A DNA stretch of 64,000 bases. Origin: Terriglobia bacterium (GTDB taxonomy: Bacteria > Acidobacteriota > Terriglobia > 20CM-2-55-15). Of this stretch, positions 21,512 through 41,606 are shown piece after piece. Position 1 is the first letter of the stretch; every line of letters starts with the position of its first letter. Position numbers and translations under genes: made by a program. Where the stretch lies: the NCBI GenBank assembly GCA_965262425.1, contig OZ253536.1, forward strand, positions 5,325,085-5,389,084. Direction: 5' to 3'. The notes beneath the pieces are model-generated. The model had not been told where the DNA came from, ran no database searches, and saw only the letters and a list, made by a program, of their open reading frames with translations.

Positions 21512-21788
21512 TCCCACACCGATGGCCTGGTGGTACAAGCACATGGACGGCATGGTGGGTTCGGGCATCGCCTTTCACACGGCCTTCCTTGTGTTTGGAG
21601 CGCGGAGTGTTTTTGGCGGCGCCCTGATCGAAGGGACGTGGTCATTCCTGCCCTGGGTCTTGCCGACTGCTCTGGGATTACCCGCGCTTCATTTCTGGAC
21701 TCGGTACTACAAGAGGAAGTTCGGAGACCTCCCCCGGAAGGTCCCCGGGGAGTCTGTGGTTCAGAGCTAGCTAGCGGTACACAGGAAA

Positions 21789-21823
21789 GCGTGTCGGGGT
21801 GGCCGTCCCTGGCCACCCGCGGG
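21789..21823 (+). repeat. REP-like palindrome, type A
   Basis: GCGTGTCGGGGTGGCCGTCCCTGGCCACCCGCGGG. Confidence 0.85.
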
Positions 21824-21910
21824 CCAGGACGAATCGCCCGCCCAGGAATCCCCCAATAACCCAGCACCCGCCACAAGACAATCACCCGAACAAGGAAGCT
21901 CTCCCCCTAG

Positions 21911-23660: not shown

Positions 23661-25061
23661 CTAGTTCGACACGACTCGATAGCAGGGCTTGTAGGACTCT
23701 GAGGCGATTTTCATCCGCCCCTGATCGACGAAGCTCCGAAGAACCTTGTCGAGCAGGTCCATGACGCCGGGGTCGCCCCTTATCTCGAACGGCCCATTCT
23801 GGCGTATCAGTCGAATCCCGTGGTCTTTGATGTTCCCCGTCACTATTGCCGAAAAGGCGCGCCGCAGATTCGATGCCAGCTCGTGGGGCGCCAGGTCCCG
23901 ATGGAGCACCAGGTCCCGAACCGTTTCGTGACAGACCTCAAACGGTCGTTGATAGTCGTGGGGCACCTGCAATAACCAATTGAAGTAGAAGGCATCCCCA
24001 CTCTTGCGCCGCTGGGTCCGAACCTTGCGAATGCTTCGACCCATCCGCCGGGCCACGGCCCGAGCGTCGCCGATAATGATGCGATAGCGATTACGCGCTT
24101 CATCGCCCAGGGTCGCGCTGATGAAACGGTCGATCTGATCGAAGTAGTCCCGGCTTTTCTCTGGTCCTGTGAACACGACAGGCAAATCCTGATCGGCGTT
24201 GGCCGGGTCCATCAGCACGCCCAGCAGGTACAGGATTTCTTCTGCCGTTCCCGCACCGCCCGGAAAGACGATTATTCCGTGGCCGATACGCAGGAACGCT
24301 TCAAGACGTTTCTCTATATCCAGTAGAACCACCAGGTGGTTGACGATCGGATTCGGCGGTTCGGCCGCGATGATGCCGGGCTCGGTCAGACCCACATGAC
24401 GGGCCTCGCCGAGACGCTGTTTGGCATGGCCGATGGCCGCACCCTTCATTGGACCCTTCATGGCGCCCGGGCCACAGCCGGTGCACACATCCAGGCCGCG
24501 CAACCCCAGGTGATAACCGACGCTTTTGGTGTACTCGTACTCGGTGCGGGATATGGCATGGCCGCCCCAGCACACTACGAGGTTCGGGGCGAGATCTGGA
24601 TCCAGAATGCCGGCGTGTTTCAGGATGTGAAACACCGCATCCGTGATGCCTTCCCCCCGACCCAGATCAAACCGCTGGTTCTGTTCGATCTGGGTACCGA
24701 TGTAAACGAGATCCCGCAACACGGCGAACAGGTGCTGGCGAATCCCCTCGATGATCCGCCCGTCGACAAAAGCACCCGGCGGTGCATTTTCGATCTTCAG
24801 CTTGAGCCCCCGGGTGCGTTGTACTATTTCGATAGAGAAATTACGATAGCGGTCAAATATTGCCGCGGCATCGTCTTCCTCGCTGCCCGTGTTCATCACG
24901 GCAAGGGCACAGCTCCGCAGCAGATCGAAGAGCCGGGATTTCTCCTCTGACCCCGCGGCCACCCGCAGTTGCTCCACCTCGCTCTGGGACAGCACCTCCA
25001 GGGTCCCCCGGGGGCTGACCTCCGTATTGATCGTGTCCTGGGTTGAGGGAGTCTTCACCAT
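23661..25061 (-). CDS. ppnN: Nucleotide 5'-monophosphate nucleosidase (LOG family, YgdH)
   Basis: [52 protein letters not shown]. Confidence 0.93.
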
Positions 25062-25167
25062 TCCAGCTTAGCGTATCGAACGCCGGGTGCGCCAAAATCG
25101 GAGCGTTCCGATCCCGGACCGCGGTACAACGCCGGATCTGGCGCGGTTCCACCGCTCAGCCCCCTAT

Positions 25168-26214
25168 CTAATTCCCGTCCAGATACTCCTTCCTCAACTT
25201 CGCGACGACGGTAAAGTGCGGATCGACCACATTGGCGATTTCAAACTCAAGGAGGTGTCCCATCAACAGGCCGGCCGCACGTTCGTCGAACCCGTAGTCG
25301 GTCATGAGCCATCTTTGAAGTTCTGTTGTGGCGTGCTGCAGAGCCTGAAGCAGAGGCCGAGCGCTACCGAGGACCATGATGTAGTCGTCGTTTTCCAGAC
25401 GCGGCCAGTTGATCGTCTTGCCCTTGACCAGATCCACGGAAAACTCGACGTCCATCGATACTTCCAGCGCGTTCCCGGCGACTTCGCCGTGACCTTGCCG
25501 CGCATGGCCATCGCCTACGAAGAGCAGCGCTCCGGGTTCGAAGACCGGGAGCATCAACGTCACGCCTTCGACCAGACCGAAATAGTCCATGTTGCCGCCG
25601 AACTCGCCCGGAGTTGCGGTGGACACCGCTTCCTTGTTCGGCGGTGCCACGGCGACGCATCCGAGCATTGGCACCAGAGGGATTTCGAGAGGGGGGCGCA
25701 GGTCCGGAGTTGTCGTCCTCGCGATTCCCTCATCCAGGTCCAGTTCCCAGACCTCACACCGCGGCGAGTCCAGGTCCACGCAAGTTTGGGGCTCGGGAAC
25801 TCTTCCACCCTGGGAGCGGAGGTAGAACGGGTCGACCGCGTATGGCGCCAGCACCTGAGCGGACCATGCGGTCGTTCGGTTCGGCTGGATCTTTTCGATT
25901 CGAACAACCAGCATGTCCCCGGGCTCGGCTCCCTCGATGTAGAAAGGGCCGGTTTCCGGGTTCCACCGCCCGGCGACTTCCGTTCCCGTCTCATCGTAGC
26001 CCCGTGCGTCGATTGTTTTCGTGATGACCCTGTCGCCCGGAGCAATCCGCAGCACCGGTTCATGCGCGAAGGAAAACGTGTTGAAGTAGTGATCAGCCTG
26101 AAATCGATGTGTTTGTCCGCCTGCCTGTGGCGGAGGTTCGGCAGCCGGCAGGAGTCCTGCCAGAAAAACGAGTAACAACGATGCATTGACTATCTGGGTT
26201 GCTTGTCGGTTCAT
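25168..26214 (-). CDS. Acetamidase/formamidase family protein with a signal peptide
   Basis: NPETGPFYIEGAEPGD, GGNMD, GDGHARQGHGEV. Confidence 0.88.
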   Translation of the reverse strand: MNRQATQIVNASLLLVFLAGLLPAAEPPPQAGGQTHRFQADHYFNTFSFAHEPVLRIAPGDRVITKTIDARGYDETGTEVAGRWNPETGPFYIEGAEPGDMLVVRIEKIQPNRTTAWSAQVLAPYAVDPFYLRSQGGRVPEPQTCVDLDSPRCEVWELDLDEGIARTTTPDLRPPLEIPLVPMLGCVAVAPPNKEAVSTATPGEFGGNMDYFGLVEGVTLMLPVFEPGALLFVGDGHARQGHGEVAGNALEVSMDVEFSVDLVKGKTINWPRLENDDYIMVLGSARPLLQALQHATTELQRWLMTDYGFDERAAGLLMGHLLEFEIANVVDPHFTVVAKLRKEYLDGN

Positions 26215-26412
26215 TTGCTCCTCCCGGTCTTCGACCGGCACTATCTTGCGCCAGTCGGCCGCCTAATGACAGCTTTCCGTGCCGCCGCCGTTGCCTGATT
26301 CTCAAGCAAGCGAACAAAGACTGCCGGTTAGGCTGTCAGCAATCGCATTGATTGACACGCCACGCCTCTGCCGATAGCATCCTGTCACTGCCGGTTTCAC
26401 TGGAGGATCCAC

Positions 26413-27477
26413 ATGAGGAGCCGTTCGAGATCTTTCTCGATTGCGACGACCCTGCTGATGTTGGCCGCTTGCGCCCCGAGCACCGTTCCGGGCTCGGGAG
26501 ACGGGGTGTCCGCTGGCGTGGCGAACGGTATCGAACCGATTACCTGGCGCATCCAGAGCAATCTGAATGCGGGGGAGCCGGGATACGAGGCGGTTCGAGT
26601 GGAGTTCGTTGAACTGGCCGAGAGGATGTCTGGTGGAAGAATCAGGTTCCAACTGCATCCGGTCGGCGCGTTGTTCCCTGTAGAAGAAGGCCTCGAAGCC
26701 ATCGGCAACGGCCTGATTGACATGGCCCTCCTCACGGGTGGCTATTACGCAGGCAAGCTGGGACCGATCGCCAATCTCGAGATGGGTGTGCCCGGATCGC
26801 TGCACACGCCCCTGGAGCGCCACAATTTCTTTTACCGCGCCGGGTTTCTGGACCTGGTGCGAGAAGTTTACGGGAAGTTCGGCGTGTACTACCTGGGTCC
26901 GCAACTCTCGCCCGCGTGGGACATGATGTCGAGCAAACCGATCACCCGGATGAAGGACTTTGAGGGCCTCAAGATCCGTGCTTTCGGAATCGAGGCCGAG
27001 TGGTATTCGAAGATGGGTGCATCTCCGGTTTTCATGGACGGTGGGGAAATCTATACCGGCCTCGCTACCGGTGTCGTCGATGCGGCACGTTGGTCCAGCC
27101 CTTCCGGCAATCAGACCAATTCGTATCACGAAGTGGCGAAGTACTACATCCAGCCCTCGCCAATGCCGGTGCCGAACAACTTCTTCGCGGTAAACGCCGA
27201 AGCCTGGAACAAACTTCCTGATGACCTGAAGGCGATCCTGGATCAAGCGGCGCAGGCGTCATCCATGGCTTATCTGTCGCGAGCGATGCTTGCGGATTCA
27301 CGGGCCATGCAGGAGATGCAGGCGGCCGGCGTGGAGATCAGCAGGATCGATGATGCCGAGTGGGCTGAAATCGAAGCCGTCGCGAAGCTCCTGTGGGAAG
27401 GGTATGCCGAGCAAGGAGACCTGCCCAGGCGTGGGGTCGAACTGCTTCAGAAGTATCTCGCCGATCTCGGGCGCTAG
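26413..27477 (+). CDS. dctP: TRAP transporter substrate-binding lipoprotein
   Basis: LAAC lipobox; MSGGRI, DFEGLKIR, EIYTGLATGVVD, WNKLPDDLK. Confidence 0.92.
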   Translation: MRSRSRSFSIATTLLMLAACAPSTVPGSGDGVSAGVANGIEPITWRIQSNLNAGEPGYEAVRVEFVELAERMSGGRIRFQLHPVGALFPVEEGLEAIGNGLIDMALLTGGYYAGKLGPIANLEMGVPGSLHTPLERHNFFYRAGFLDLVREVYGKFGVYYLGPQLSPAWDMMSSKPITRMKDFEGLKIRAFGIEAEWYSKMGASPVFMDGGEIYTGLATGVVDAARWSSPSGNQTNSYHEVAKYYIQPSPMPVPNNFFAVNAEAWNKLPDDLKAILDQAAQASSMAYLSRAMLADSRAMQEMQAAGVEISRIDDAEWAEIEAVAKLLWEGYAEQGDLPRRGVELLQKYLADLGR

Positions 27478-27761
27478 GAGCCCGTGGTGGAAGTCTGTAG
27501 GGTCGCGCGCAGGGGTATTCGGGTCACAGGCGCGAAATGAGGAGCGGAACGATGCATAGTCCTCGTGACCGAGGCGCGAATGACGAAAGCCGTGACCGAC
27601 GTGGCCCGAAGACCCCTGCGCCCTACGGGTTACGACGGCATGGGGCCATCTGCGGCGTTGGCACTCCTAGATCGATGGCGAGCATCGACGTCGTCGTGCC
27701 GCCTTGCAGCTAGCCCCATGGCGCTCGTAACGCGACCCTACAGACTTCCACCACGGGCTCC
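27477..27761. mobile_element. 285-bp structured MITE with IS1182-like ends
   Basis: Perfect 31-bp TIR GGAGCCCGTGGTGGAAGTCTGTAGGGTCGCG; two long internal hairpins. Confidence 0.8.
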
Positions 27762-27944
27762 TTGGAGCCTGCGCGGCAGAAGGGATCGTAGCGAGAAAGT
27801 GGAGAATCGAGGACAGATTTTCTCGATTTTGAGGCGAATAGTGGTTCTATTTAACGAAAAATCGGGGAAATATGGACCGATTCCTACCGCTTTCGCAGTA
27901 GATTCCTTCTGCCGCGCAGGCTCCTACTGGACCAATCGGCAAAC

Positions 27945-28457
27945 ATGACGAAAACACTGTCCAGAATATCGCTCGCTCTCGATCGTTTTATCGAAGTGAT
28001 CGGGCGGACGGTATCGTTGCTGGTCCTGGCCGTCATTGGCGTCGTTTCGCTGGAGATGGTCCTCCGGTTCGTCTTCAACAAACCGACCCCCTGGGCACAC
28101 GAACTGAGTGCCTGGATGCAAGTCGCACTGGTCTTTCTCGGCGGCGCCTACGCCTTCACGAAGGGGCAGTTCGTCCGGATCGACATCCTTCAGACGCGCA
28201 TGACACCGCGGACGAAGGCATGGGTGGACCTCACGCTCGGTTCAGCCTTGTTGGGCCTGTTCGCCGGCGTGATGATCTGGGAGGGTGCGGATCTCGCCTG
28301 GCAGTCGTTCCAGATGGGTGAGGTGTCCGCCACCGGCGCCTGGTCCGGACCGGTGTTTATCGCAAAGACCTTCGTCCCCCTGGGCGGCGTCCTGTTGGCT
28401 ACGGCATGGGTCTCTCACATGCTGAAGCAACTCGTCATTGTGCTCGAAGCGGATTGA
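27945..28457 (+). CDS. dctQ: TRAP transporter small permease
   Basis: Four TM helices; RFVFNKPTPWAHEL, VRIDIL. Confidence 0.9.
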   Translation: MTKTLSRISLALDRFIEVIGRTVSLLVLAVIGVVSLEMVLRFVFNKPTPWAHELSAWMQVALVFLGGAYAFTKGQFVRIDILQTRMTPRTKAWVDLTLGSALLGLFAGVMIWEGADLAWQSFQMGEVSATGAWSGPVFIAKTFVPLGGVLLATAWVSHMLKQLVIVLEAD

Positions 28458-28464
28458 TCTCCCC

Positions 28465-29775
28465 ATGGGCCCCCTAGGAATCACACTCATTCTCTTTGGA
28501 AGCGTGATGGTCAGTCTGCTGGCGGGCATCCCCATCGCGATCGCGCTCGGCGGCGTCGGCGTCCTCATGATCTACCTGTTCTGGGGCACAAATGCGCTTG
28601 CGACATTGGCGATGAACGGGTTCTCCGTAACGTCGAGCTTCGAGTTCATGGCCATACCGCTGTTCATTTTCATGGCCAACATGCTGCATCACTCCGGGAT
28701 TGCCGATGATCTGTACGCGACCATGTATCACTTCTTCGGTCGCCTTCGTGGAGGTCTGGCAGCGGGGAGCGTTGTGATCTGCACGATCTTCGCTGCAATG
28801 GCCGGGATCAGCGGTGCGGCAACGATTTCCATGGGCGTCGTGGCCCTGCCGTCCATGCTCAACCGGGGATACTCGAAGGACATTGCTCTGGGCAGTATCG
28901 CCGCGGGCGGGTCACTGGGGATTCTGATCCCGCCGAGCGTCACGATGATCGTGTACGGCCTGGTTTCCGGAACTTCCATCGGCAAGCTCTATGCCGGTGG
29001 CGTTCTTCCGGGACTGATGCTTTCGGCCTTGTTTATCTCCTACATCCTGATTCGCAGCTGGCTTCGACCCGAGCTGGCGCCGGCCGCGGTGGACCAACCC
29101 GAGTGGGCTACGTGGGAAAGCGTCGCCTCACTGAAAGGGCTCGTGTTTCCCCTGATCCTTGTGGGATCCGTTCTGGGTTCGATCGTCACCGGCGTCGCCA
29201 GCATTTCCGAAGCCGCGGCGGTGGGCGCCGTCGGCAGTATCGCCGCCGCAGGGTTCAAGGGGCGCTGGACCTGGTCGGTCATCCGGGCAACCTGTGTCCA
29301 GACCCTGTTGCTCACATGCCTGATTTTCTGGATCATCATCGGTGCGTCGGCTCTGTCCACGTTCTACACGGCCATGGGCGCGGCCAGTCTGATTCAGGGG
29401 ATCGTTCTCGGATGGGATGTGAACCGCTATGTGATCTTGCTGGGCATCACGGTGATACTGCTGGTGATGGGAACGGTGATCGACACCGTCGGCATCATCA
29501 TGATCACAGCCCCTGTGTTTGTGCCCATCATCCGAGCGCTCGACTTTGACCTTGTATGGTTTGGTGTGCTGTTTATCGTGAACATGGAAGCCGGCTTCCT
29601 GACGCCGCCCTTCGGATACAACCTTTTCTATTTGAAAGGCGTGGCCCCGCCCGACGTGACCATGGTCGAGATTTACCGGTCCGTGTTACCGTTCATCCTG
29701 CTGATGTTCTTCGGCATGGGGCTACTGGTTCTGTTTCCGGAAATTGTGTTGGTCCTACCCAACGCTCTATTCTGA
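28465..29775 (+). CDS. dctM: TRAP transporter large permease
   Basis: AIPLFIFM, GSLGILIPPS, LTPPFGYNLF. Confidence 0.93.
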   Translation: MGPLGITLILFGSVMVSLLAGIPIAIALGGVGVLMIYLFWGTNALATLAMNGFSVTSSFEFMAIPLFIFMANMLHHSGIADDLYATMYHFFGRLRGGLAAGSVVICTIFAAMAGISGAATISMGVVALPSMLNRGYSKDIALGSIAAGGSLGILIPPSVTMIVYGLVSGTSIGKLYAGGVLPGLMLSALFISYILIRSWLRPELAPAAVDQPEWATWESVASLKGLVFPLILVGSVLGSIVTGVASISEAAAVGAVGSIAAAGFKGRWTWSVIRATCVQTLLLTCLIFWIIIGASALSTFYTAMGAASLIQGIVLGWDVNRYVILLGITVILLVMGTVIDTVGIIMITAPVFVPIIRALDFDLVWFGVLFIVNMEAGFLTPPFGYNLFYLKGVAPPDVTMVEIYRSVLPFILLMFFGMGLLVLFPEIVLVLPNALF

Positions 29776-29867
29776 ATCTTTAACTCGAAACGACGGCGAC
29801 TATCGGGCAGCCGTCGCGATCATTTGCCGAATCGATATATGTTCAACCTCCACAACCGAATTAATCG

Positions 29868-31928
29868 ATGAGTTCAATTGACATCGGAGTGGACGTTGGC
29901 GGCACGTTCACGGATTTTATCCTTTATGATGCCCAGCGCAACCTGTTCCGCATCCGGAAGATTCCGACGACACTCGACGACCGCGCGACAGGCTTCATGC
30001 AAGGCATTAGGGAACTGACGCCCGACCTTTCCGACGTGGATCGTATCGTTCATGGGACCACGGCGGGTACGAATGCAGTGCTCGAAAGGAAAGGGGCCCG
30101 GTGTGGCCTGATCACGACGGCGGGTTTTCGTGATGTCCTGGAGCTGGGCCGCAGGTCCCGCCCGCATTCCTACGGTCTTCATGGCACGTTCGAGCCGTTG
30201 ATCGGGCGCGAGTTCCGGTTGGAGGTTCGCGAGAGGATGGATGCACAGGGAAACGTCATCATTCCTCTCGACGAAGATGACGTGCGCGTCGCCGTGGCGA
30301 AACTGGAGTCGATGGACGTGGAATCCATCGTGATCCACTTTCTGCATTCCTATGCCAACCCCGCCCATGAAGTCCGCTGTGACGAAATCGTTCGAGCCGC
30401 CTGGTCCGGAGACGGTATTGTGGTCGGCCATCGCGTCATCCGTGAGATGCGTGAGTTTGAGCGAGGTTCGACCGCGGCGATTCAAGGGGCCATCCGGCCG
30501 ATCGTGTCGGATTACATCAAGCGGGTCTCGGTCGCCCTGGAAGAAGCCGGATATGAACGGGAACTGATGGTCATGCAGGCAAACGGGGGAATGATGGCCG
30601 CATCGATTGTTGCCGACCATGCGGTTCACACGGTGATGTCCGGGCCCGCGGCCGGTGTGTTGGCTGCCGCGCGGATTGGCACGGCAGCCGGTTTCGAAAA
30701 CATCATTACGGCCGACATGGGCGGCACCAGCTTTGACGTTGCATTGATCGTTGGCGGCGAGCCTCTTGTGACCAACGACAAGGAAATCGCATACGCGACC
30801 CCGATTCACATACCGATGGTCGACATTCACATCATCGGCGCCGGGGGCGGAAGCATTGCCCGTGTCGACGACGCCGGGATGCTTCGCGTCGGGCCGGAAA
30901 GTGCGGGATCCGAGCCCGGCCCGATCGGTTATTCACGTGGTGGAACCGAACCGACGATCACCGACGCGAACTTCCTTCTCGGACGACTGAACGAGAGCAA
31001 CGTCACCGGCTCGGACAAACCGGCCGACCTCGACCGGATTGCCGAAGTGTTCGACGCCCAGGTTGGCGCTCATCTGGACCTGAATGCACTGGAAAGCGCC
31101 GAAGCCGTGCTCCGTGTTGCGGTCAATGAACTGGCCGGCGCCGTTCGCCTGGTCTCTGTCGAAAAAGGAAAGGATCCCCGTGATTTCGCCCTGATGTCCT
31201 TTGGCGGCGCAGGCCCCCTCCACGCCGTCGCTGTGGCCCGGCATCTTGGCATACCGACGGTTCTGGTGCCCCGCTTTCCCGGCCTGACCTCGGCCCTGGG
31301 ATGCATCATGGCCGATGTGCGTCATGATTTCGTGCACGCGATCAACCTGCCCCTTTCCCGTGTCCGGGCGACACCGATCGATGCCCTCTTTGCCGAGCAG
31401 CTCGCAGCCGGAAGGGTGCTTCTCGACCGGGAATCGGTCCCCGTCAAACAGACCGTCGTCAGGCACGAAGCCGACCTGCTGTATCAGGGGCAATCCCACG
31501 TTCTGCGACTCGGTGTGGAAAGTCCGGGATTTGATCCGGACGAACTGGTCACCGCCTTTGCGGATCGCTTCAGTGAGCGTTTCGGTATTCGGCTCGACGA
31601 GATGAAACCTGTCCTGGTCAACGTCCGGACCACTGTGATCGGTGCCCGGGAAAGAGATTTCCCGATCGGCGTCCCTTCGGACGGAGTGACGCTCGAAGAT
31701 GCGATCAAGGGACTACGTGAGGTTAGGTTCGACGGCTCGTGGTGTCGAACCAGAATCTATGACCGCGAGAGTCTCCCACACGGCGTCCGCTTCGACGGAC
31801 CCGCGATTGTCGAACAACTGGATGCGACGATCGTCATCGACCCCGGCGCCCGGGCCGCGATCGACGAGCTCGGCAATATGATCGTCACGGTCGGATCCGC
31901 GCGCTACGAGAAAGTGGAGGCGGAATGA
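29868..31928 (+). CDS. Hydantoinase A / 5-oxoprolinase-type ATP-binding subunit
   Basis: DVGGTFTD, HGTT, SGPAAG, DMGGTSFD, GAGGGS, GPESAGSEPGP. Confidence 0.93.
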   Translation: MSSIDIGVDVGGTFTDFILYDAQRNLFRIRKIPTTLDDRATGFMQGIRELTPDLSDVDRIVHGTTAGTNAVLERKGARCGLITTAGFRDVLELGRRSRPHSYGLHGTFEPLIGREFRLEVRERMDAQGNVIIPLDEDDVRVAVAKLESMDVESIVIHFLHSYANPAHEVRCDEIVRAAWSGDGIVVGHRVIREMREFERGSTAAIQGAIRPIVSDYIKRVSVALEEAGYERELMVMQANGGMMAASIVADHAVHTVMSGPAAGVLAAARIGTAAGFENIITADMGGTSFDVALIVGGEPLVTNDKEIAYATPIHIPMVDIHIIGAGGGSIARVDDAGMLRVGPESAGSEPGPIGYSRGGTEPTITDANFLLGRLNESNVTGSDKPADLDRIAEVFDAQVGAHLDLNALESAEAVLRVAVNELAGAVRLVSVEKGKDPRDFALMSFGGAGPLHAVAVARHLGIPTVLVPRFPGLTSALGCIMADVRHDFVHAINLPLSRVRATPIDALFAEQLAAGRVLLDRESVPVKQTVVRHEADLLYQGQSHVLRLGVESPGFDPDELVTAFADRFSERFGIRLDEMKPVLVNVRTTVIGARERDFPIGVPSDGVTLEDAIKGLREVRFDGSWCRTRIYDRESLPHGVRFDGPAIVEQLDATIVIDPGARAAIDELGNMIVTVGSARYEKVEAE

Positions 31929-33607
31929 ACATTGATCCCGTCACCCTGACCGTGATCGAAAAAGGTCTGCAGCATGTCTGCAGTGAAATGGATCTGACCC
32001 ATGACCGGACCGCCTTCTCCCCCGTCATATCGGAAGCGTTTGACCGCTCCAACGGCATCTATCGGCCCAGCGACGGCGGAGTCATCGCCCAGGGTGAATT
32101 GGGGATGCCGATCTTTATCGGTGTGATGCAGGAGACCACGCGCGAGGTCATCGAACATCGGAATGATCTCGGTGACGGAGACATCATCCTGGTGAATGAC
32201 CCCTATTTCGGCGGCACGCATCTGATGGACGTCAAGATGGTCAAACCATTTTTCTACAGTGGCCGGCTCTGGTGCTTTCTGTCCAATACAGGTCATTGGC
32301 CCGACACCGGGGGCATGGTCCCGGGCGGTTTCAGCAGTACGGCGACGGAGATCCACCAGGAAGGGCTTCGGATTCCGCCGGTCAAGCTGGTTCGACGGGG
32401 CGAGATCCAACAGGACATCGTCGACCTTGTTCTAGCGAACGTCCGTGTCAGCCAAGAGCGCATCGGCGACATCAAGGCACAGATCGGCGCGCTCGATATT
32501 GGCGAGAAACGCCTTCGTGAGCTTCTCGATCGCTATGGCGCCGACACCGTCGAAGCGGCGATTGAGGAACTGGAGGTTCGTTCCGAACGGATGATGCGTT
32601 CGAAGATCCGGACGATCCCGGACGGCAGTTATTCCAGTATCGCTTACATCGACAGCGACGGCATTGTTGATGAACCCCTTGAGATTCGCCTGACGGCAAC
32701 GATTGCCGACGACGAAATCGAGCTCGATTTAGGTGGGAGTAGCCCGCCTTGCCTCGGCCCGATGAACTCGGTCTGGGCCAGCACCCTGTCGGCCTGCTAT
32801 CTCTCTTTCAAGCACATCTTTCCCGATGTCCCCATCAACGTGGGTTGCTTCAAGCCGATCAAAGTCAAGAAGCCTGAAGGAACCTTTCTTTACGCCAAAT
32901 ATCCGAAGCCGGTCGCCGGCTGCGCGGCCGAAGTGTCGCAGCGCATTGTAGAGGCTGTCTTCCTGGCGCTGGTCGAGGTCATTCCCGACAAGCTCTACGC
33001 GGCGCCCGCCGGCACCAGCGGTAATTTCAGCCTGGGTGGATACGATCCCCAGACCGACAGTCACTACATCATGTATTTCTTCAGCGGCGGTGGATACGGT
33101 GGCTGGTGGAAGGGTGACGGGATCTCGAACGGTTGCTCGACAATCGGGATCTCGAAAACCCAGCCTGTTGAAATCCTGGAGCAGCGCTATCCCATCCTGT
33201 TTGAGCGTTACGCGCTGCGGGAAGGATCCGCCGGAGCCGGTCGGTACCGGGGCGGTTTCGGGACCGGCTATCGCGTGCGGCTCCTGCGCGGGGAAGCGAC
33301 GGCTTCGTTCCTCATGGAACACGGACGGTACGGGCCGCCGGGTGTGCTTGGCGGGGAAGCGGGTCTCCCGAACGAGATCCTGGTCAGCCAGGCTGGTCGA
33401 CGGAGTACACCGCCTCATCGATCCAAGGGTGAAGGCTATCGTTTAGAGGCCGGCGATTGGGTCGACGTGCGGACGCCGGGAGGTGGCGGGTACGGGAATT
33501 CCGACGAACGCAGCGCCGTGCTCGCCGAACGCGACAAGCGTTGCGGCTATTTCGATACGGTCGATGCGGGGGCCGGAGTGGATCCGTCAGAGACGATCAA
33601 GAGATGA
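31925..33607 (+). CDS. Hydantoinase B / 5-oxoprolinase-type hydrolytic subunit
   Basis: NDPYFGGTHLMD, HWPDTGG, QEGLRIPP, TPGGGGYG; overlaps subunit A by ATGA. Confidence 0.93.
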   Translation: MNIDPVTLTVIEKGLQHVCSEMDLTHDRTAFSPVISEAFDRSNGIYRPSDGGVIAQGELGMPIFIGVMQETTREVIEHRNDLGDGDIILVNDPYFGGTHLMDVKMVKPFFYSGRLWCFLSNTGHWPDTGGMVPGGFSSTATEIHQEGLRIPPVKLVRRGEIQQDIVDLVLANVRVSQERIGDIKAQIGALDIGEKRLRELLDRYGADTVEAAIEELEVRSERMMRSKIRTIPDGSYSSIAYIDSDGIVDEPLEIRLTATIADDEIELDLGGSSPPCLGPMNSVWASTLSACYLSFKHIFPDVPINVGCFKPIKVKKPEGTFLYAKYPKPVAGCAAEVSQRIVEAVFLALVEVIPDKLYAAPAGTSGNFSLGGYDPQTDSHYIMYFFSGGGYGGWWKGDGISNGCSTIGISKTQPVEILEQRYPILFERYALREGSAGAGRYRGGFGTGYRVRLLRGEATASFLMEHGRYGPPGVLGGEAGLPNEILVSQAGRRSTPPHRSKGEGYRLEAGDWVDVRTPGGGGYGNSDERSAVLAERDKRCGYFDTVDAGAGVDPSETIKR

Positions 33608-34314
33608 TCGACAAAACGGTCTCTTCGGCTTCGGCGGCGGTAGCGGACATTTTTGATGGCGCAACGGTGATGATTGGCGGTTTCGGTGAAGCTGGAAGCC
33701 CGATCGAGTTGATCCATGCCTTGATCGATCTGGGAGCGAACGATCTCACTGTCGTCAACAACAACACGGGTAACGGCGAAATCGGCCTTGCAGCGCTGAT
33801 CGGCCGCGGGCAGGTCCGCAAGATGATCTGCTCCTATCCCCGGTCGAGCCATTCCAGCGTATTTCCCGAACTCTACCGGGCCGGCAAGATTGAGTTGGAA
33901 ATCGTGCCGCAGGGGACGCTCGCCGAACGCATTCGAGCCGGCGGCGCAGGGATTCCCGCATTCTTCACACCGACGGCCGCCGGGACACTTCTGGCCGAAG
34001 GCAAGGAGTCCCGCGAGTTCGAGGGTCGCACCTGTGTCATGGAACACTGGTTGAAAGCCGACTTCGCTCTCGTCAAATGTGAACGCGGCGATCGTCTCGG
34101 TAACCTGACGTACAACAAAACGGCTCGGAATTTCAGCCCGATTTTGTGTATGGCCGCAGCCACCACTATTGTTCAGACCCGGCGGTTGGTCGAACCTGGC
34201 GCGATTGATCCGGAGCACGTGGTCACTCCCGCCATTTTTGTGAACCGGATCGTGGAGATCCCCGACCCGCTGGACGAATCGCGGCTCGTCGCCGAAGGGA
34301 CACGATATCCATGA
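33604..34314 (+). CDS. pcaI: 3-oxoadipate CoA-transferase subunit A
   Basis: MIDK...GGFG...NNTGNGEIGLAAL...CSYPR...ELYRAGKIELEIVPQGTLAERIR, characteristic of the PcaI clade. Confidence 0.8.
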   Translation: MIDKTVSSASAAVADIFDGATVMIGGFGEAGSPIELIHALIDLGANDLTVVNNNTGNGEIGLAALIGRGQVRKMICSYPRSSHSSVFPELYRAGKIELEIVPQGTLAERIRAGGAGIPAFFTPTAAGTLLAEGKESREFEGRTCVMEHWLKADFALVKCERGDRLGNLTYNKTARNFSPILCMAAATTIVQTRRLVEPGAIDPEHVVTPAIFVNRIVEIPDPLDESRLVAEGTRYP

Positions 34315-34958
34315 GTCAACATGTGGGTTGGAGCAGGGAAGCGATGGCCGAACGTGCGTCCCTCGACATTCCGGATGGTTCATACGTCAACCTGGGGATC
34401 GGGATACCGGAACTGGTCGTGCAGTACGTTCCCCAGGGGCGTGAGTTCGTCTTCCAGACCGAGAACGGCTTGCTCGGCATGGGACCGCCACCACCACCCG
34501 GAGAAGAGGATCCGGAACTGATGAATGCCGGCAAGAAGGCTGTCACTGCCCTGCCCGGGGCCTCTTTCTTTCATCACGCCGACAGCTTTGCGATGATCCG
34601 GGGCGGTCATATCGACGTCTGCGTTCTCGGCGCTCTGCAGGTGTCGGCCACCGGTGACCTGGCGAACTGGTCGACTGGAAATCCCGACGACATCCCGGCC
34701 GTCGGAGGCGCCATGGATCTGGTGGGCGGCGTCCCGACCATCCTGGTCATCACCCGGCACACGACGAAATCGGGAGAGCCGAAGCTCGTTTCCGAATGTT
34801 CCTATCCACTCACCGGTAAGGCCGTGACTACTCGCGTCTATACGGACCTTGCCGTCATCGACATCACGCCGGAAGGGTTCAGGCTACGCGAGCTTGCACC
34901 GGGAATAACCTTGGAGGAAGTCCGCGCCCGAACGGGCACGGATATTCTGCCTGTCTAA
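34311..34958 (+). CDS. pcaJ: 3-oxoadipate CoA-transferase subunit B
   Basis: VNLGIG, catalytic (T)ENG, FFHHADSF, GDLANW...IPAVGGAMDL. Confidence 0.8.
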   Translation: MSQHVGWSREAMAERASLDIPDGSYVNLGIGIPELVVQYVPQGREFVFQTENGLLGMGPPPPPGEEDPELMNAGKKAVTALPGASFFHHADSFAMIRGGHIDVCVLGALQVSATGDLANWSTGNPDDIPAVGGAMDLVGGVPTILVITRHTTKSGEPKLVSECSYPLTGKAVTTRVYTDLAVIDITPEGFRLRELAPGITLEEVRARTGTDILPV

Positions 34959-34972
34959 GAGGTGTAGACCGC

Positions 34973-36286
34973 ATGGGAGAGAACATCCATCGACGAAGCG
35001 CCGACCTGTTCGAGCGGGCCTGTCGGGTCTTGCCGGGTGGAGTCAGTCGAAACACCCTCCTGCGGGACACTCCGCTGCTCTATGCACGACAGGGAAGTGG
35101 ATGTCAGGTCGTGGATGTCGATGGCGTGGAACGCATCGATTTCGCCAACAACATGGCCTCTCTGATTCATGGTCACGCCCACCCCGCAATTATCGAAGCG
35201 GTGACGACACAGTTGAAGCTGGGTACGGCGTTTACGATGGCCACCGAAGCCGAACTGCTTTACGCCGAACAATTGTGCGGCCGCTCCCCAGATTTCGACA
35301 AGGTTCGTTTCGTGAATTCCGGGACGGAGGCGGTCATGACCGCTTTGAAAGCGGCTCGTGCCTTCACCGGAAGGGCGAAGATCGCCAAGGTCGAGGGTGC
35401 CTACCACGGCACCTACGACTACGCCGAAGCCAGCCAGTCCCCGACTCCGGATGTCTGGGGGCGTTCGGACAATCCGAACTCGGTTCCCCTGGCCGTGGGC
35501 ACGCCGGAAGGTGTCCTCGCCGACGTCGTGATCATTCCGTTCAACGATCCCGACACCGCGGTCGCCATACTGGACCGGCACAGGAAAGACATCGCGGGTG
35601 TACTGCTGGATCTCATGCCACACCGCGTTGGACTCATTCCGGCGTCTGATGTGTTCGTGAGTTCGCTGCGAGATTGGACCCGTGACAACGATGCCCTTCT
35701 GATCGTCGACGAGGTCATTACCTTCAGGGAAGAGGTCGGTGGAATGCAGGCCCGATTTACCGCGCGACCCGACCTCACTGCGATGGCAAAAATCATCGGG
35801 GGTGGTTTCCCCGTGGGCGCTGTCGCAGGCCGGGACGAGGTGATGTCGGTGTTTGCCGCGACCGAGCATGGAATCCGCCTTCCGCACTCCGGCACCTTCT
35901 CTGCCAACCCGGTGACCATGACGGCCGGACGCGTGGCGATGGAACTCTACGACGCGCCCGCGGTCGAACGCCTCAACCGGCTGGGCGACGTGGCCCGCAG
36001 TCGAATTTCCGAGGCCATCGCCCTGTCAGGAGCGCCCGCCTCGGTGACGGGCAGCGGATCCCTTTTTCGTATCCACATGCGGGCCGAACCCCCCGTGGAC
36101 TACCGCTCCGCGTACCAGGACCGAGACACGGTCAAAACCCTGAATCGTTTCATCGACGGCGTCTATGACGGCGGGATCATGATGCTGAACACCGCAGCCG
36201 GTGCCCTGTCGACGGCGATGGACGTCCCCGAAATCGATCGCCTCGCCGAAGTCGTCGAGCACAGCCTCCGAACAATCAGGAATTAG
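34973..36286 (+). CDS. Class III PLP aminotransferase (GSA-aminomutase-like, possibly a beta-amino acid transaminase)
   Basis: PGGVSR, NSGTEA, YHG, DEVIT, AKIIGGGFPVGA, HSGTFSANP. Confidence 0.88.
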   Translation: MGENIHRRSADLFERACRVLPGGVSRNTLLRDTPLLYARQGSGCQVVDVDGVERIDFANNMASLIHGHAHPAIIEAVTTQLKLGTAFTMATEAELLYAEQLCGRSPDFDKVRFVNSGTEAVMTALKAARAFTGRAKIAKVEGAYHGTYDYAEASQSPTPDVWGRSDNPNSVPLAVGTPEGVLADVVIIPFNDPDTAVAILDRHRKDIAGVLLDLMPHRVGLIPASDVFVSSLRDWTRDNDALLIVDEVITFREEVGGMQARFTARPDLTAMAKIIGGGFPVGAVAGRDEVMSVFAATEHGIRLPHSGTFSANPVTMTAGRVAMELYDAPAVERLNRLGDVARSRISEAIALSGAPASVTGSGSLFRIHMRAEPPVDYRSAYQDRDTVKTLNRFIDGVYDGGIMMLNTAAGALSTAMDVPEIDRLAEVVEHSLRTIRN

Positions 36287-36486
36287 GGAGCAGAGCCCTC
36301 AATACCCGAATTCACTGTGTAGGTAATTCTGGAACCAAACGGGGGTAGCGCACCTGGAAGGCCACTGGCCGGAAGATGAGGTTCAGTTGTGACGTTTCCG
36401 AGCATCCGATCCGGCTCGACTAGTATATTTGAGGATGAAATAAGCCGAAAACGAATTAGGGTATTGAGGGCTCTGCTCCCTAATTC
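36280..36486. repeat. 207-bp element bounded by 34-bp inverted repeats
   Basis: GAATTAGGGAGCAGAGCCCTCAATACCC(G/T)AATTC at 36280-36313 and inverted at 36453-36486 (1 mismatch). Confidence 0.85.
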
Positions 36487-36497
36487 AGGAGGCACGA

Positions 36498-38594
36498 ATG
36501 CAACATTCATACATCGCTGCGAACGGGCACAATTGGCTGGTTGTTCCGCTCGTCTTAGCACTACTGGCCTTTGCCGCGAATGCGGGGGCCGGCTCCCAGG
36601 AAAACACCGGTAACTCTGTCGGGTCGGGCGACGTCGGGATCGAGCCGCCGACGGTCAGGTCGATCGGATTGGAGTGGGAGATCAGCGGCGACTTGAATCG
36701 CGACGCTTCGGTTGGGGTGGACTACCGTGAGGCCGGCACTTCAAACTGGAGTGAAGGCTTGCCTCTGTTCCGACTCCAGAATGAGACCGTGCCGGCTGAA
36801 AACGTGAGCGACTCGGACAACGCGAACCGCCCTCCCGAAGAGTCCGCGTTCTATTACGTCACTCCGAACATGTTCACCGGCAGCATTTTTGACCTCCGGC
36901 CGGATACCACGTACGAAGTGCGTCTGAGGCTGGTCGATCCCGACGGCGTGCGTGGCCAGGCCGAGCGCACGGTCGAAATAACGACCCGCGCGATTCCGCA
37001 GCGCTCGGTTGGAGGCAACGTCTATCACGTCTACCCGGTGGGTTGGGAAGGGCCAAGGGACCAACCTTCGTTCGAAGGTCTGCTGCGAGGCTACAACTAC
37101 GGTGCCGAGCATGCCGACTGGAACCACGCGTACGAGCCGCGGGTCCGGCCCGGAGATACGGTCATCGTCCACGCGGGCGAGTACAAGGCCGATCGTTTCG
37201 AATATGGCAACTACACCCGCGAAGGCCCGGGTGTTGGCGGTCCCGGCTACGGCGTTCCATTCGACGGCACTTATTTGCTGACGGGCAAGGGTACGCCAGA
37301 GAAGCCGATTACGATCATGGCGGCAGGCGATGGTGAGGTATGGTTCGACGGCGATAACAACCACGTGCTTTTCAATGTTCAGGTTGCCGACTACCACATC
37401 TTCGATGGCATCAACATCCGCAATACGAACATTGCCTACGATGCCGGCATCAAACGCATCGCCGGCGCCAGAGGTCTGACAATCGTGAACTCGCGGATCG
37501 AGGAAGTCGGTGTTGCCGTCCAGACCGATTTCGAAGGCTCGCGTGATTTCTACATCGCCGACAACACGATGGTCGGCCGGGTCAGCGCCAACAATCTCGT
37601 CGGTTGGACCGGTCGGGGCGCGTGGGTCGGTCTTCCGGACTGGCCTGCCGATTTGTCGTCGTTCCAGGGCATCCGCCTTTACGGACCCGGGCACGTCGTC
37701 GAGTACAACACGATCGAGCGCTTCCATGATGGCATCGCGCTGGCGACGTTCGGCCGCCCGGGCACATTGCCGGACCTGGAGCCCGACCCGGAGTTCATCG
37801 ACGATCTGGGTTTTGATCCGAGGTACGTCACGGGTCCAAACTCGGTCGACATCATGAACAACGGCATCAGTAACATCAGCGACATTTGCATTGAGCCCGA
37901 CGGTGGTGCACGCAACATTCGAGTTCTGAGAAACCGGTGTGTCAACATTGCGAGTACCGCGATGCGGTCCCAACCCGCCTTTGGCGGCCCGCACTATTAC
38001 ATCCGCAACATCGTTTACCATGCGCCGCGTGGCACGGCCCTGGGCGCTTCAAGCGGTTCCTCGGGTCAGGTGATGTATAACAACACCGTGTTTGGCGGCA
38101 TCGGTGCGACCGGGTCGAACCATCACTTCCTGAACAATCTGGTCGTGACGGCGACGCCGGGCTCCCGGATGATGGACATGTCGACATTCACCAGCTATTC
38201 ATCGTCGGACTACAACGGTTTCATCCCCGGTTCAGATGGATCAACCGCGTTCAGGTGGAGGTCGCCAAACGACGTGCGCCGGCAGTACGACTTGTCGCTG
38301 CTGGTGATGAGGGAATACGACAGCTTTGCCGACTACCAGGCGGGTACGGGACAAGACGTCAACAGCGTCCTGCTGACCCTGGACGTATTTGCGGATGTCA
38401 CCCTGCCGGACGTTGACAATCCCTCGGCGTTGTATGACGGTGACGACATCGACTTCAACCTCAGGTCCGGCGGCGGGGCGGTTGATAGAGGTGTGGCCTT
38501 GCCCGGTGTGACCGACCGGGTCACCGGCGATGCACCAGACCTTGGAGCACTCGAACTCGGGATCCCACGACCTCATTATGGCCGCCGGAACTAA
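36498..38594 (+). CDS. Secreted right-handed beta-helix (pectin-lyase-like) protein
   Basis: Signal peptide, Fn3-like N-region (GSIFDLRPDTTYEV), PGDTVIVHAGEY, Asn-rich beta-helix turns, APDLGALE C-terminus. Confidence 0.78.
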   Translation: MQHSYIAANGHNWLVVPLVLALLAFAANAGAGSQENTGNSVGSGDVGIEPPTVRSIGLEWEISGDLNRDASVGVDYREAGTSNWSEGLPLFRLQNETVPAENVSDSDNANRPPEESAFYYVTPNMFTGSIFDLRPDTTYEVRLRLVDPDGVRGQAERTVEITTRAIPQRSVGGNVYHVYPVGWEGPRDQPSFEGLLRGYNYGAEHADWNHAYEPRVRPGDTVIVHAGEYKADRFEYGNYTREGPGVGGPGYGVPFDGTYLLTGKGTPEKPITIMAAGDGEVWFDGDNNHVLFNVQVADYHIFDGINIRNTNIAYDAGIKRIAGARGLTIVNSRIEEVGVAVQTDFEGSRDFYIADNTMVGRVSANNLVGWTGRGAWVGLPDWPADLSSFQGIRLYGPGHVVEYNTIERFHDGIALATFGRPGTLPDLEPDPEFIDDLGFDPRYVTGPNSVDIMNNGISNISDICIEPDGGARNIRVLRNRCVNIASTAMRSQPAFGGPHYYIRNIVYHAPRGTALGASSGSSGQVMYNNTVFGGIGATGSNHHFLNNLVVTATPGSRMMDMSTFTSYSSSDYNGFIPGSDGSTAFRWRSPNDVRRQYDLSLLVMREYDSFADYQAGTGQDVNSVLLTLDVFADVTLPDVDNPSALYDGDDIDFNLRSGGGAVDRGVALPGVTDRVTGDAPDLGALELGIPRPHYGRRN

Positions 38595-38971
38595 ATCCAG
38601 TTCTGAGCTGACAGGACACCGGATCGATTTTATGGAGAGATGATATGACCGGACGGCTAACGACAGTCATCGGCGTAGTCGCCAGCGGCCTTGTGCTCGT
38701 AGGTGCCGCAACACTGGCACAGCAGGGCGGAAGTCCCACATCCCCTCCCGCGCCGATTGAACTGCTGTCCATCGATAGCAGCGGCCGTGGAGCAACGCCA
38801 GCCGCCCTCGGCGGCGGGCAGATCCACGACCGAATGACGGAAATCACGGCCCTTTCGGACTTGAGCCGGAAAGAGGGGGACTTACTCTGGGGACGCGTGG
38901 CGGGCCGGTCGGGCGATCACGCCGCTGCCCAATACGTCCGCCGACAGTTCGAACGCATTGGTCTCGACCTA

Positions 38972-40122
38972 GTGTAATCCGTCACAGTTAATGTAACTTA
39001 TTCAGCTTTCCTACGTCTGAGTATATATGAGGAGAGCACCGACGATTAAATTGGACATTCCTGTGCGGAAGGAACTGGAGCGACTGAGCCGAAGCCGCAG
39101 TGTGGCGGTCCGGTTGGCGGAACGATCTCGAATTGTCTTGCTGGCCGCCGGGGGTCTGGACAATCAGGAGATCGCTGCCAAGTTGGACATCACTCGTCAA
39201 AAGGCCGGACGTTGGCGCGATCGTTTCGTTGAAGATGGCCTCGGGGGAATCGAAAAGGACGCTTCCCGCAGTGGACGGATTCCCTCGATCGGCCGCCGGA
39301 AGCGGGCCCGGATCGTGAAGAAGACGGTCGAAGGGAAGCCTCCGAACGCCACGCACTGGAGCCGGTCCTTGATGGCCAGGGCAACCGGCGTCAGCGAGTC
39401 CACGGTAGGGAGAATCTGGCGGGCTCATGGCTTGAAGCCTCATCTGGCACGCACCTTCAAACTTTCCAACGACAAACAATTTGTCGAGAAGTTGGAGGAT
39501 GTGGTCGGTTTGTATCTGAACCCTCCGGAAAACGCCATTGTTTTGTCCTGCGATGAGAAGAGCCAGATGCAGGCCCTGGACCGCACGCAACCCGGGTTAC
39601 CTCTGAAGAAGGGGCGGTGCGGCACCCTCACCCACGACTACAAACGCAACGGGACGACCACGATGTTCGCCGCGCTCAATACGCTGGACGGCTCGATTAT
39701 CGGGACCTGTATGCCGAAGCATCGTCATCAGGAATGGATCCGGTTTCTCAATCAGATCAAACGTTCCGTGCCGAAAGACAAACAGATCCATATCATTTGC
39801 GACAACTACGCCACGCACAAACATCAGAAAGTCGTCAACTGGTTGAAGCGCAACACGCGCTTTCATGTGCACTTCACACCGACCAGTGCATCCTGGCTGA
39901 ACATGGTCGAACGCTTCTTCCGGGATCTTTCCGAACAACGGCTTCGGCGCGGGGTTTTCCATTCGGTTCCTGAGCTAATCCAGGCCGTGGAGGAATATGT
40001 CGGGGGTCACAATCAGAACCCGAAGCCCTTCATTTGGACCGCAACGGCTTCCGATATTCTTGAAAAAGTTCAACGTGCCCGAAAGAAGCTCGATAAGTTA
40101 CAGTCTGTTTGACGGGGACCAC
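38972..40122 (+). mobile_element. IS630-family insertion sequence
   Basis: TIRs GTGTAATCCGTCA...TGTAACTTAT / ATAAGTTACA...TGACGGGGACCAC flanked by TA, within a CTAG. Confidence 0.9.
39027..40112 (+). CDS. IS630-family transposase
   Basis: CDEKSQ, HDYKRNGT, CDNYATHK, HFTPTSASWLNMVERFF. Confidence 0.95.
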   Translation: MRRAPTIKLDIPVRKELERLSRSRSVAVRLAERSRIVLLAAGGLDNQEIAAKLDITRQKAGRWRDRFVEDGLGGIEKDASRSGRIPSIGRRKRARIVKKTVEGKPPNATHWSRSLMARATGVSESTVGRIWRAHGLKPHLARTFKLSNDKQFVEKLEDVVGLYLNPPENAIVLSCDEKSQMQALDRTQPGLPLKKGRCGTLTHDYKRNGTTTMFAALNTLDGSIIGTCMPKHRHQEWIRFLNQIKRSVPKDKQIHIICDNYATHKHQKVVNWLKRNTRFHVHFTPTSASWLNMVERFFRDLSEQRLRRGVFHSVPELIQAVEEYVGGHNQNPKPFIWTATASDILEKVQRARKKLDKLQSV

Positions 40123-41519: not shown

Positions 41520-41606
41520 ATCGCGTTCTCCTTCCACTATCTTCCTCGCGATACGGTCGCATGGGGTCCGTTGTTAACTATGAAGTTGACTTGCACCACG
41601 GGCTGC
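40125..41606 (-). mobile_element. IS1182/IS5-like insertion sequence
   Basis: TIRs GCAGCCCGTGGCAGAAGT / ACTTGCACCACGGGCTGC flanked by (C)TA(G). Confidence 0.85.

Follow-up and report, generated by a model that had tools for sequence, protein, structure and literature searches.

What would a soil bacterium in which no aromatic ring-cleavage genes are found do with the coenzyme A (CoA)-transferase of the beta-ketoadipate pathway, a textbook route for aromatic compounds? The question is raised by a plus-strand array of eight genes (26413-36286) in a 64,000-nucleotide stretch, hereafter the window, of a Terriglobia bacterium from the Acidobacteriota (GenBank assembly GCA_965262425.1, contig OZ253536.1, positions 5,325,085 to 5,389,084). 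In this array the genes of a tripartite ATP-independent periplasmic (TRAP) transporter (dctP, dctQ, dctM) are followed by hyuA and hyuB, by pcaI and pcaJ, and by a gene for a class III aminotransferase (AT). An earlier note on this DNA remarked that the window lacks ring-cleavage genes, and the whole genome indeed has no pcaH match and no pcaD above cut-off; the note proposed that a lactam is opened to 3-aminoadipate, transaminated to 3-oxoadipate and activated by PcaIJ. Based on profile, structural-relative and comparative genomic evidence, we hold with evenly divided confidence that the array is one operon using a carboxylated lactam as carbon and nitrogen source through 3-aminoadipate and 3-oxoadipate. 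At the level of sequence, the points on which the note said the proposal could fail (the gene linkage, the class of the AT and, by its context, PcaIJ) come out in its favor, whereas the identity of the lactam and the lactamase role of HyuAB are what we infer.

In the proposed route, DctPQM would import a carboxylated lactam and HyuAB, of the ATP-dependent hydantoinase/oxoprolinase/caprolactamase family, would open its ring to a beta-amino dicarboxylate, most simply 3-aminoadipate derived from the gamma-lactam 5-oxopyrrolidine-2-acetate. The AT, which resembles glutamate-1-semialdehyde aminomutase (GSAM), would convert 3-aminoadipate into 3-oxoadipate; PcaIJ would transfer CoA from succinyl-CoA to form 3-oxoadipyl-CoA, and an unlinked thiolase would release succinyl-CoA and acetyl-CoA. 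The TRAP transporter and HyuAB would stand where a KamA-like aminomutase feeds the pcaI-pcaJ-AT triad in most other genomes. Sequence itself shows the order and translational coupling of the genes, their families, the integrity of the catalytic motifs and the conservation of the linkage. The steps of the route do not carry equal weight: the AT and PcaIJ steps, from 3-aminoadipate through 3-oxoadipate to 3-oxoadipyl-CoA, are likely; an upstream role of HyuAB as the feeding lactamase is somewhat favored; and 5-oxopyrrolidine-2-acetate as the specific lactam is a tentative choice, held with slightly less than even confidence.

Gene families were assigned with Pfam and NCBIfam profiles, each assignment lying well above its threshold, and close relatives by sequence comparison with the PDB. 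The order and positions of all eight genes (Table 1) agree with the earlier note, as do the ATGA overlaps read in the DNA at the hyuA/hyuB (31925-31928), hyuB/pcaI (33604-33607) and pcaI/pcaJ (34311-34314) junctions and the 14-bp gap between pcaJ and the AT gene. The dctM gene, whose TTG start is uncertain, overlaps the end of dctQ with that start, and the solute-binding, small and large membrane subunits of the transporter lie in one array. The region from dctP through the AT gene is one operon with the boundaries previously drawn. A GGAGG ribosome-binding site is found 7 nt 5' of the dctP ATG, and the weak candidate promoter upstream is the sole plus-strand match to TTGACA-17-TAGCAT in 25000-39000, yet total matches are no higher than the shuffled expectation. 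The same is true of the matches in a terminator scan, and an Rfam search of 20000-42000 gave no match. The dctP-dctQ spacer (27478-27944) measures 467 bp, versus 83-162 bp in Sneathiella and Hyphomicrobiaceae, and holds a 127-aa open reading frame (ORF; 27565-27948) that matches neither Pfam nor Rfam.

Table 1. Genes and candidate promoter of the operon, in window coordinates
Feature	Positions	Strand	Profile match or remark
Candidate sigma-70-like promoter, TTGACA-17-TAGCAT	26352-26380	+	33 bp 5' of dctP; weak
dctP, TRAP solute-binding subunit	26413-27477	+	PF03480, 148 bits
dctQ, TRAP small membrane subunit	27945-28457	+	PF04290, 88 bits
dctM, TRAP large permease	28438-29775	+	PF06808, 268 bits; TIGR00786, 328 bits (cut-off 268)
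hyuA, ATP-binding subunit, ATP-dependent lactamase-type	29868-31928	+	Hydant_A_N, Hydantoinase_A, Hydant_A_C
hyuB, metal-site (hydrolytic) subunit	31925-33607	+	PF02538 (Hydantoinase_B), 551 bits
pcaI, 3-oxoacid CoA-transferase subunit A	33604-34314	+	TIGR02429, 348.9 bits (cut-off 128.5)
pcaJ, 3-oxoacid CoA-transferase subunit B	34311-34958	+	TIGR02428, 292.8 bits (cut-off 243.55)
Class III (GSAM-like) AT	34973-36286	+	PF00202, 187 bits

The aminotransferase and the pcaIJ triad

The AT is set apart from HemL by score, by structural relatives and by phylogeny, as the earlier note had anticipated. On the HemL model TIGR00713 it reaches 306.4 bits against an equivalog cut-off of 527.3; the real HemL of this genome (C1:4.567 Mb), to which it is 37% identical, scores 623.6 bits. 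Its best solved relative is 6K8H (393 bits, ~50% identity, versus ~215 bits for GSAMs). 6K8H is an omega-transaminase of Sphaerobacter thermophilus, active on beta- and gamma-amino acids and accepting 4-aminopentanoate, in which R36 is proposed to bind the substrate carboxylate and K282 is the Schiff-base Lys (PMC10589169). In the window AT, R26 of the PGGVSR motif (part of L-P-G-G-V-S-R-N, encoded at 35031-35054) corresponds in the alignment to the Arg in the PGGNTR of 6K8H, and K273 to the Schiff-base Lys; together with the Aminotran_3 domain, these residues mark a class III transaminase. The likening of PGGVSR to the PGGN(T/S)R of beta-transaminases, rather than to the PGGVNSPVR of HemL, is thus upheld, the genome's own HemL carrying PGGVNSPVR where the window AT carries PGGVSRN. 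The Arg of (P/A)GGxSR is retained in 90 of 95 AT rows; the triad clade has (P/A)GGxSR and its sister clades have PGGN(S/T)R. A maximum-likelihood tree built from 94 AT rows places the window AT and that of a sister genome, a second species of the genus, deep inside an 81-row triad clade (SH-aLRT 100) and within a 19-row subset holding KamA- and PcaF-linked rows. The triad clade has as its nearest sisters ATs encoded directly 3' of hyuAB in other phyla.

With one genome scanned per species, 562 relatives of this AT were confirmed, and the neighbors of the best 80 were defined by de novo clustering and tblastn. In 63 of these 80 loci, from many phyla, pcaI and pcaJ are directly 5' of the AT gene, and two more contigs end inside pcaJ; hyuAB and TRAP genes adjoin the AT gene in a single locus, that of the sister genome. 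A KamA-family radical S-adenosylmethionine enzyme is encoded in 62 loci, as either a 536-aa type (38/80) or a 475-aa type (24/80), which never co-occur; the alignment of these KamA-like proteins to lysine 2,3-aminomutase (2A5H) ends at residue 244. A thiolase gene follows the triad in 29 of the 80; all 29 match pcaF at E <= 1e-150, and the representative is a PcaF equivalog (TIGR02430, 669.5 bits, cut-off 597). An aldehyde dehydrogenase is present in 13 loci, its representative being an equivalog of L-piperideine-6-carboxylate dehydrogenase (NF050084, 806.7 bits versus 730), an enzyme that produces 2-aminoadipate. Further neighbors are a saccharopine-dehydrogenase-like protein (7/80) and LysR regulators of two types (24/80 and 9/80). 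The pcaF-type thiolases and the 2-aminoadipate-making enzyme point to a C6 skeleton, and the thiolases provide contextual support for 3-oxoadipate as the intermediate named in the earlier note. The simplest reading of these loci is a route from 2-aminoadipate through 3-aminoadipate, 3-oxoadipate and 3-oxoadipyl-CoA to succinyl-CoA and acetyl-CoA, the KamA-like enzyme presumably converting 2-aminoadipate into 3-aminoadipate. This form has cultured carriers in Colwellia, Photobacterium and Motiliproteus. From the combined PcaIJ, PcaF, beta-keto acid cleavage enzyme (BKACE; see below) and KamA context we infer that the AT is a 3-aminoadipate:2-oxoacid transaminase.

PcaIJ belongs to the two-subunit family I 3-oxoacid CoA-transferases by its TIGR02429 and TIGR02428 matches, and PcaJ has a T-E-N-G motif, which we take to be the catalytic one. 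PcaI is 67-80% identical to the PcaIs of the triads, the KamA-linked ones being closest in a poorly resolved tree; the other ScoA paralog of the genome, beside its own thiolase, is 52% identical to PcaI and forms a long outgroup. In the whole genome we found no L-piperideine-6-carboxylate dehydrogenase above cut-off, no BKACE, and no KamA ortholog, only an unlinked 35% relative. With pcaH also lacking and pcaD below its cut-off, the genome has neither a feeder besides TRAP-HyuAB nor another way out of the pathway. The KamA-like gene of this genome (C1:4049271-4050662, 463 aa) was considered as the missing aminomutase but is not supported in that role: its product is 35% and 30% identical to the two triad types, while members of the 536-aa type are 57-89% identical to their representative. 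It falls below all equivalog cut-offs and lies (L095 9272-10663) beside an amidase gene and two DVU_1556-type methyltransferase genes.

HyuAB, the transporter and their relatives

Among PDB entries, HyuA is most similar to N-methylhydantoinase (447 bits) and CapA (353), with carboxylases at 294 and 257 bits; HyuB is most similar to the caprolactamase subunit CapB (279) and N-methylhydantoinase (255), followed by acetophenone carboxylase (121) and acetone carboxylase (52). The caprolactamase study defines the ATP motifs DxGGTxTD, DxGGT and GxxPGP and an Asp-His-Asp-His metal site, which was mutated in that work (PMC8453981). HyuA has DVGGTFTD at 9, DMGGT at 283 and GSEPGP at 347, and D40, H99, D102 and H124 of HyuB align with the CapB tetrad D41, H99, D102 and H124. 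Orthology with CapAB is not indicated, given scores of 495.5 (NF050156) and 335.4 bits (NF050157) against a cut-off of 1000 for each. The acetone/acetophenone carboxylase models are likewise far from reached, with ApcC at 303.7 bits (cut-off 1500) and ApcA and ApcD at 161.4 and 110.2 (cut-offs 1250-1500), and no 5-oxoprolinase model of NCBIfam matched HyuAB. Only two HyuAB-type subunit genes are present; since hyuB overlaps pcaI, there is no gene for a third subunit. DctP has a lipoprotein-type signal and an Arg189, in a GLKIR motif, which we assume to be the carboxylate-binding Arg of TRAP solute-binding proteins; among PDB entries it is most similar to TRAP proteins that bind lactate, ketoacids and amines.

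The feeding half of the operon also recurs elsewhere. Across 80 hyuB loci, clustered over hyuAB and 5 kb on each side, and 12 loci with a close dctP, five alphaproteobacterial loci were found with TRAP, IclR, hyuAB and pcaIJ genes (L097, L099, L177, L178, L179; two from Sneathiella and three from Hyphomicrobiaceae), whose proteins are 70-72% (HyuB), 61-70% (DctP) and 67-75% (PcaI) identical to those of the window. The two Sneathiella isolates combine dctPQM, an IclR/PcaR-like regulator, hyuAB, an omega-AT, pcaIJ and a second, GSAM-like AT; one of the three hyuAB-pcaIJ loci of Hyphomicrobiaceae has a GSAM-like AT. Cultured species that carry this form are Sneathiella chinensis and S. litorea. 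In the 12 loci with a close dctP relative (56-71% identical), dctQM followed by hyuAB is found in all 11 that do not end early. Four rhizobial loci pair hyuAB with two ATs, and in two roseobacter loci an AT of the window type (48% identical) lies next to TRAP genes and a distant hyuAB. In six hyuB loci (metagenome-assembled genomes of Rokubacteria, Binatia, Actinobacteria, Deltaproteobacteria and Alphaproteobacteria), the gene for an AT that shares 46-52% identity with that of the window starts less than 400 bp 3' of hyuB. The conserved linkage expected from the earlier note is therefore present, as pcaIJ-AT in the 63 AT loci, as TRAP-hyuAB-pcaIJ in the five alphaproteobacterial loci and as hyuAB-AT in further phyla. 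Judged by this genome comparison, the arrangement in the window is not due to chance, because pcaI-pcaJ-AT and TRAP-hyuAB-pcaIJ both recur.

In two of the hyuB loci (L130, L138) a window-type AT gene is followed by that of a BKACE-family enzyme, and in L153 such a gene is adjacent; the best NCBIfam matches, all below cut-off, are 3-keto-5-aminohexanoate cleavage enzyme, 3,5-dioxohexanoate:acetyl-CoA acetone transferase and 3-oxoadipate:acetyl-CoA acetyltransferase. The position of BKACE 3' of the AT gene independently indicates that the product of the AT acting after HyuAB is a beta-keto acid. Since PcaIJ and BKACE both use beta-keto acids, and since these clusters have no aminomutase, the product of HyuAB would already be a beta-amino acid. 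If, in addition, a carboxylate must be left for the TRAP binding protein, the lactam would be closed on the second, distal carboxyl; with the C6 skeleton indicated by PcaF, this points to 5-oxopyrrolidine-2-acetate, the lactam that the earlier note had put forward as a hypothesis.

Two further features of the hyuB loci were noted. In the alphaproteobacterial TRAP-IclR-hyuAB clusters of L099 (3950-15718), L180-L182 and L188, a PRK07483-type omega-AT is found together with a GSAM-like AT (31-33% identical to that of the window), with or without pcaIJ; two enantiomers or a diamino substrate are possibilities for the paired ATs of alphaproteobacterial clusters. In Stella vacuolata (L098, 3962-21065), a LysR gene, a xanthine/uracil-family permease gene, hyuAB (HyuB 69%), a Liv-type ABC transporter, a 2-oxoglutarate (2OG)-Fe(II) oxygenase gene and a second, distant hyuAB form what looks like an uncharacterized N-heterocycle cluster. 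As to a possible link with nicotinate, no molybdenum hydroxylase was found among the ten ORFs scanned, and the locus gave no substrate clue.

Weighing the lactam route

Several observations count against the lactam route as formulated above. TIGR02429 and TIGR02428 cover acetoacetate-type ScoAB as well as PcaIJ. The pcaF that the earlier note suggested seeking elsewhere in the genome was not found: the genome has four generic thiolases, at 383-407 bits against a PcaF equivalog cut-off of 597, so that the last step rests on one of these. The ATs of the alphaproteobacterial TRAP-hyuAB-pcaIJ clusters are of a different GSAM-like kind, 31-33% identical to that of the window, and some of these clusters add a second, omega-AT that a substrate with one amine would not need. 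Close HyuAB relatives (HyuB 67-69%) are also encountered in unrelated contexts, with a Liv-type ABC transporter, a nucleobase permease or a 2OG oxygenase; the subfamily thus does not fix the substrate. We found no record of 5-oxopyrrolidine-2-acetate as a natural metabolite in the literature searched, which left most subscription journals outside its coverage. Finally, the lactamases and carboxylases of the HyuAB family share all checkable motifs (PMC8453981).

This last point bears on the function of HyuAB itself. If HyuAB were an ATP-dependent ketone carboxylase, in the manner of acetone or acetophenone carboxylase, the substrate could be an imported gamma-amino or keto acid such as 4-aminopentanoate or levulinate, the AT yielding a methyl ketone that HyuAB carboxylates to 3-oxoadipate for activation by PcaIJ. 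The chemistry would give exactly the substrate of PcaIJ, DctP is closest, among solved proteins, to binders of lactate and keto acids, and published work describes both family members that carboxylate to beta-keto acids (PMC8453981) and the acceptance of 4-aminopentanoate by 6K8H (PMC10589169). Both subunits, however, score higher to hydrolases than to carboxylases (HyuB, 279/255 versus 121/52 bits; HyuA, 447/353 versus 294/257), the ApcC score is about 304 bits where 1500 are needed, and the hyuB-pcaI overlap leaves no room for a third subunit gene. Moreover, the AT clade makes the PcaIJ substrate without any HyuAB, and an AT is encoded in nearly every TRAP-hyuAB cluster of the subfamily, as it should be if an amine is set free each time. 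A carboxylase is, in our view, improbable. With HyuAB as a lactamase, the ring could still differ: opening of 6-oxopiperidine-2-acetate would lead through 3-aminopimelate and 3-oxopimelate to 3-oxopimeloyl-CoA, and a substituted pyrrolidone is another candidate. All that PcaIJ and BKACE fix about the product of the AT is its class, a beta-keto acid, and both the varied contexts of the HyuAB subfamily and the other ATs of the alphaproteobacterial clusters would suit such a substrate; but the AT and PcaI of the window are nested among, or closest to, triads in which every thiolase (29/29) matches pcaF and which are also linked to the 2-aminoadipate-making enzyme. Another ring is thus unlikely, though it keeps some credit.

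The two halves of the operon might also be merely adjacent, the TRAP transporter and HyuAB acquiring nitrogen from, for example, a 5-oxoproline-like lactam, and pcaIJ-AT serving free 3-aminoadipate taken up by other means. In line with this, the triad is without HyuAB in 79 of the 80 AT loci, the HyuAB subfamily is without the triad in most of its loci, and the window PcaI stands nearer to PcaIs from KamA-type triads than to those linked to hyuAB in Alphaproteobacteria, suggesting a fusion of modules. We nevertheless give little credence to mere adjacency: hyuB and pcaI are coupled through an ATGA overlap; two further lineages, whose AT is a different one, either gained or kept hyuAB next to pcaIJ; the same logic is seen again in hyuAB-AT-BKACE; and the second species of the genus has retained the block at 96.6% nucleotide identity. 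A reversed order of steps, with PcaIJ making a beta-aminoacyl-CoA and the AT then acting on the thioester, is very improbable. It has a model in the alternative lysine fermentation route, which uses a 3-aminobutyryl-CoA transaminase; some class III ATs are active on CoA esters, and the gene order, pcaIJ before AT, is compatible with it. Against it, pcaI/scoA-family transferases are 3-oxoacid enzymes by family name, the BKACE variants need a free beta-keto acid, and 6K8H, the closest characterized AT, acts on free beta-amino acids.

Genomic setting and biological meaning

Transposase genes flank the operon on both sides, which led us to consider and reject an island mobilized by insertion sequences (IS): the block 23661-36270 is colinear with the chromosome of the sister genome, where the operon is also found, and the IS elements are private insertions. 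Three segments absent from the colinear sister chromosome are private to this genome, two of which (20073-21511 and 21772-23660) carry Mutator-family and DDE_Tnp_1_4 transposases, and the third (36271-42817) orf698, an IS630-like transposase and a DUF772/DDE transposase. The orf698 gene (36498-38594, plus strand), which sits in an inserted segment, is not an operon member. It encodes 698 aa with an apparent N-terminal signal sequence and no Pfam or NCBIfam family; its sole match is a sub-threshold chondroitinase-B-like one, and the protein may form a beta-helix. Farther downstream are a truncated-looking M28 peptidase ORF (42130-42795) and, just 3' of it, a gene (42937-45471, plus strand) for an 844-aa protein with DUF5117, DUF5118 and a DUF4953 Met-zincin domain. 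On the other side, the divergent acetamidase/formamidase-like gene (25168-26241, minus strand) is not supported as part of the operon: it is conserved in the genus, and its homologs occur there without the operon, being 82-87% identical in amino acids in cluster-free members, with no dctP match in the ~4-kb loci. The only relatives found for this protein were uncharacterized ones from structural genomics.

The window-type AT is present in two of 30 other relatives searched, both of the same genus. One of these genomes has the operon described here; in the other (G001), a KamA-like gene of the 475-aa type precedes pcaI, pcaJ and an AT 58% identical to that of the window (L204, G001:C59, 7804-11973). 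The feeder types thus alternate within one genus. Relative to the KamA-pcaIJ-AT-pcaF operons, the window operon has orthologous pcaIJ and AT genes (AT 57-67% identical, same clade) and the same inferred intermediates; it differs by having TRAP and HyuAB in place of the aminomutase and no thiolase in the cluster.

Several characterized systems share parts with the window operon. The caprolactam catabolism of Pseudomonas jessenii relies on the caprolactamase CapAB and a 6-aminohexanoate aminotransferase (PMC6061476, PMC8453981), and thus, like the window operon, on a two-subunit ATP-dependent lactamase, with the same ATP motifs and Asp-His-Asp-His site, and a class III AT. The window HyuAB, however, is well below the CapA/CapB cut-offs (495/335 versus 1000), the AT is of the GSAM/beta-transaminase and not the omega type, and the product would be a beta-keto acid passed to PcaIJ rather than an aldehyde oxidized to adipate; TRAP import, unlike the situation in P. 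jessenii, suggests that the substrate probably carries a carboxylate. With 5-oxoprolinase, HyuAB shares the enzyme family and the reaction type, and the proposed lactam is the one-carbon homolog of 5-oxoproline, but here the product must be a beta-amino acid requiring a class III AT. The lower beta-ketoadipate pathway is represented by the CoA-transferase matches and by the orthologous triads with pcaF matches; the window genome differs in having neither an aromatic feeder nor a PcaF equivalog, its feeder presumably being nitrogenous, a lactam or beta-amino acid. Finally, 6K8H shares the aligned Arg of PGGxxR and the catalytic Lys with its closest relative in the window, whereas it is described as a stand-alone biocatalyst of broad aromatic and aliphatic range, with PGGNTR instead of PGGVSR. 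What is new is the combination of genes and the intermediates deduced from it, each enzyme acting as its family is known to. A literature search, in which most subscription journals were outside coverage, found no metabolic paper on the KamA-triad or the HyuAB/TRAP form.

More speculatively, and with distinctly less confidence than in the route itself, 3-aminoadipate may be the hub of a widespread, non-aromatic and nitrogenous entry into the lower beta-ketoadipate pathway. Its feeders would be interchangeable, a radical S-adenosylmethionine 2-aminoadipate 2,3-aminomutase for lysine-derived carbon in some genomes and a TRAP transporter with a 'homo-oxoprolinase' HyuAB in others, as would its exits, PcaIJ with a thiolase or BKACE; the lactam would be the natural cyclization product of 3-aminoadipate, salvaged as 5-oxoproline is. 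If the lactam route is correct, the beta-ketoadipate pathway would gain a non-aromatic feeder that contains nitrogen, and the small set of ATP-dependent lactamases whose substrates are known or can be deduced would grow. The route would also explain what the large clade of "HemL-like" ATs (the 562 confirmed relatives), routinely mis-annotated, does in the cell. The AT and the lactamase are candidate biocatalysts for beta-amino dicarboxylates and stable gamma-lactams, and the cultured carriers of both forms make the proposal directly testable.

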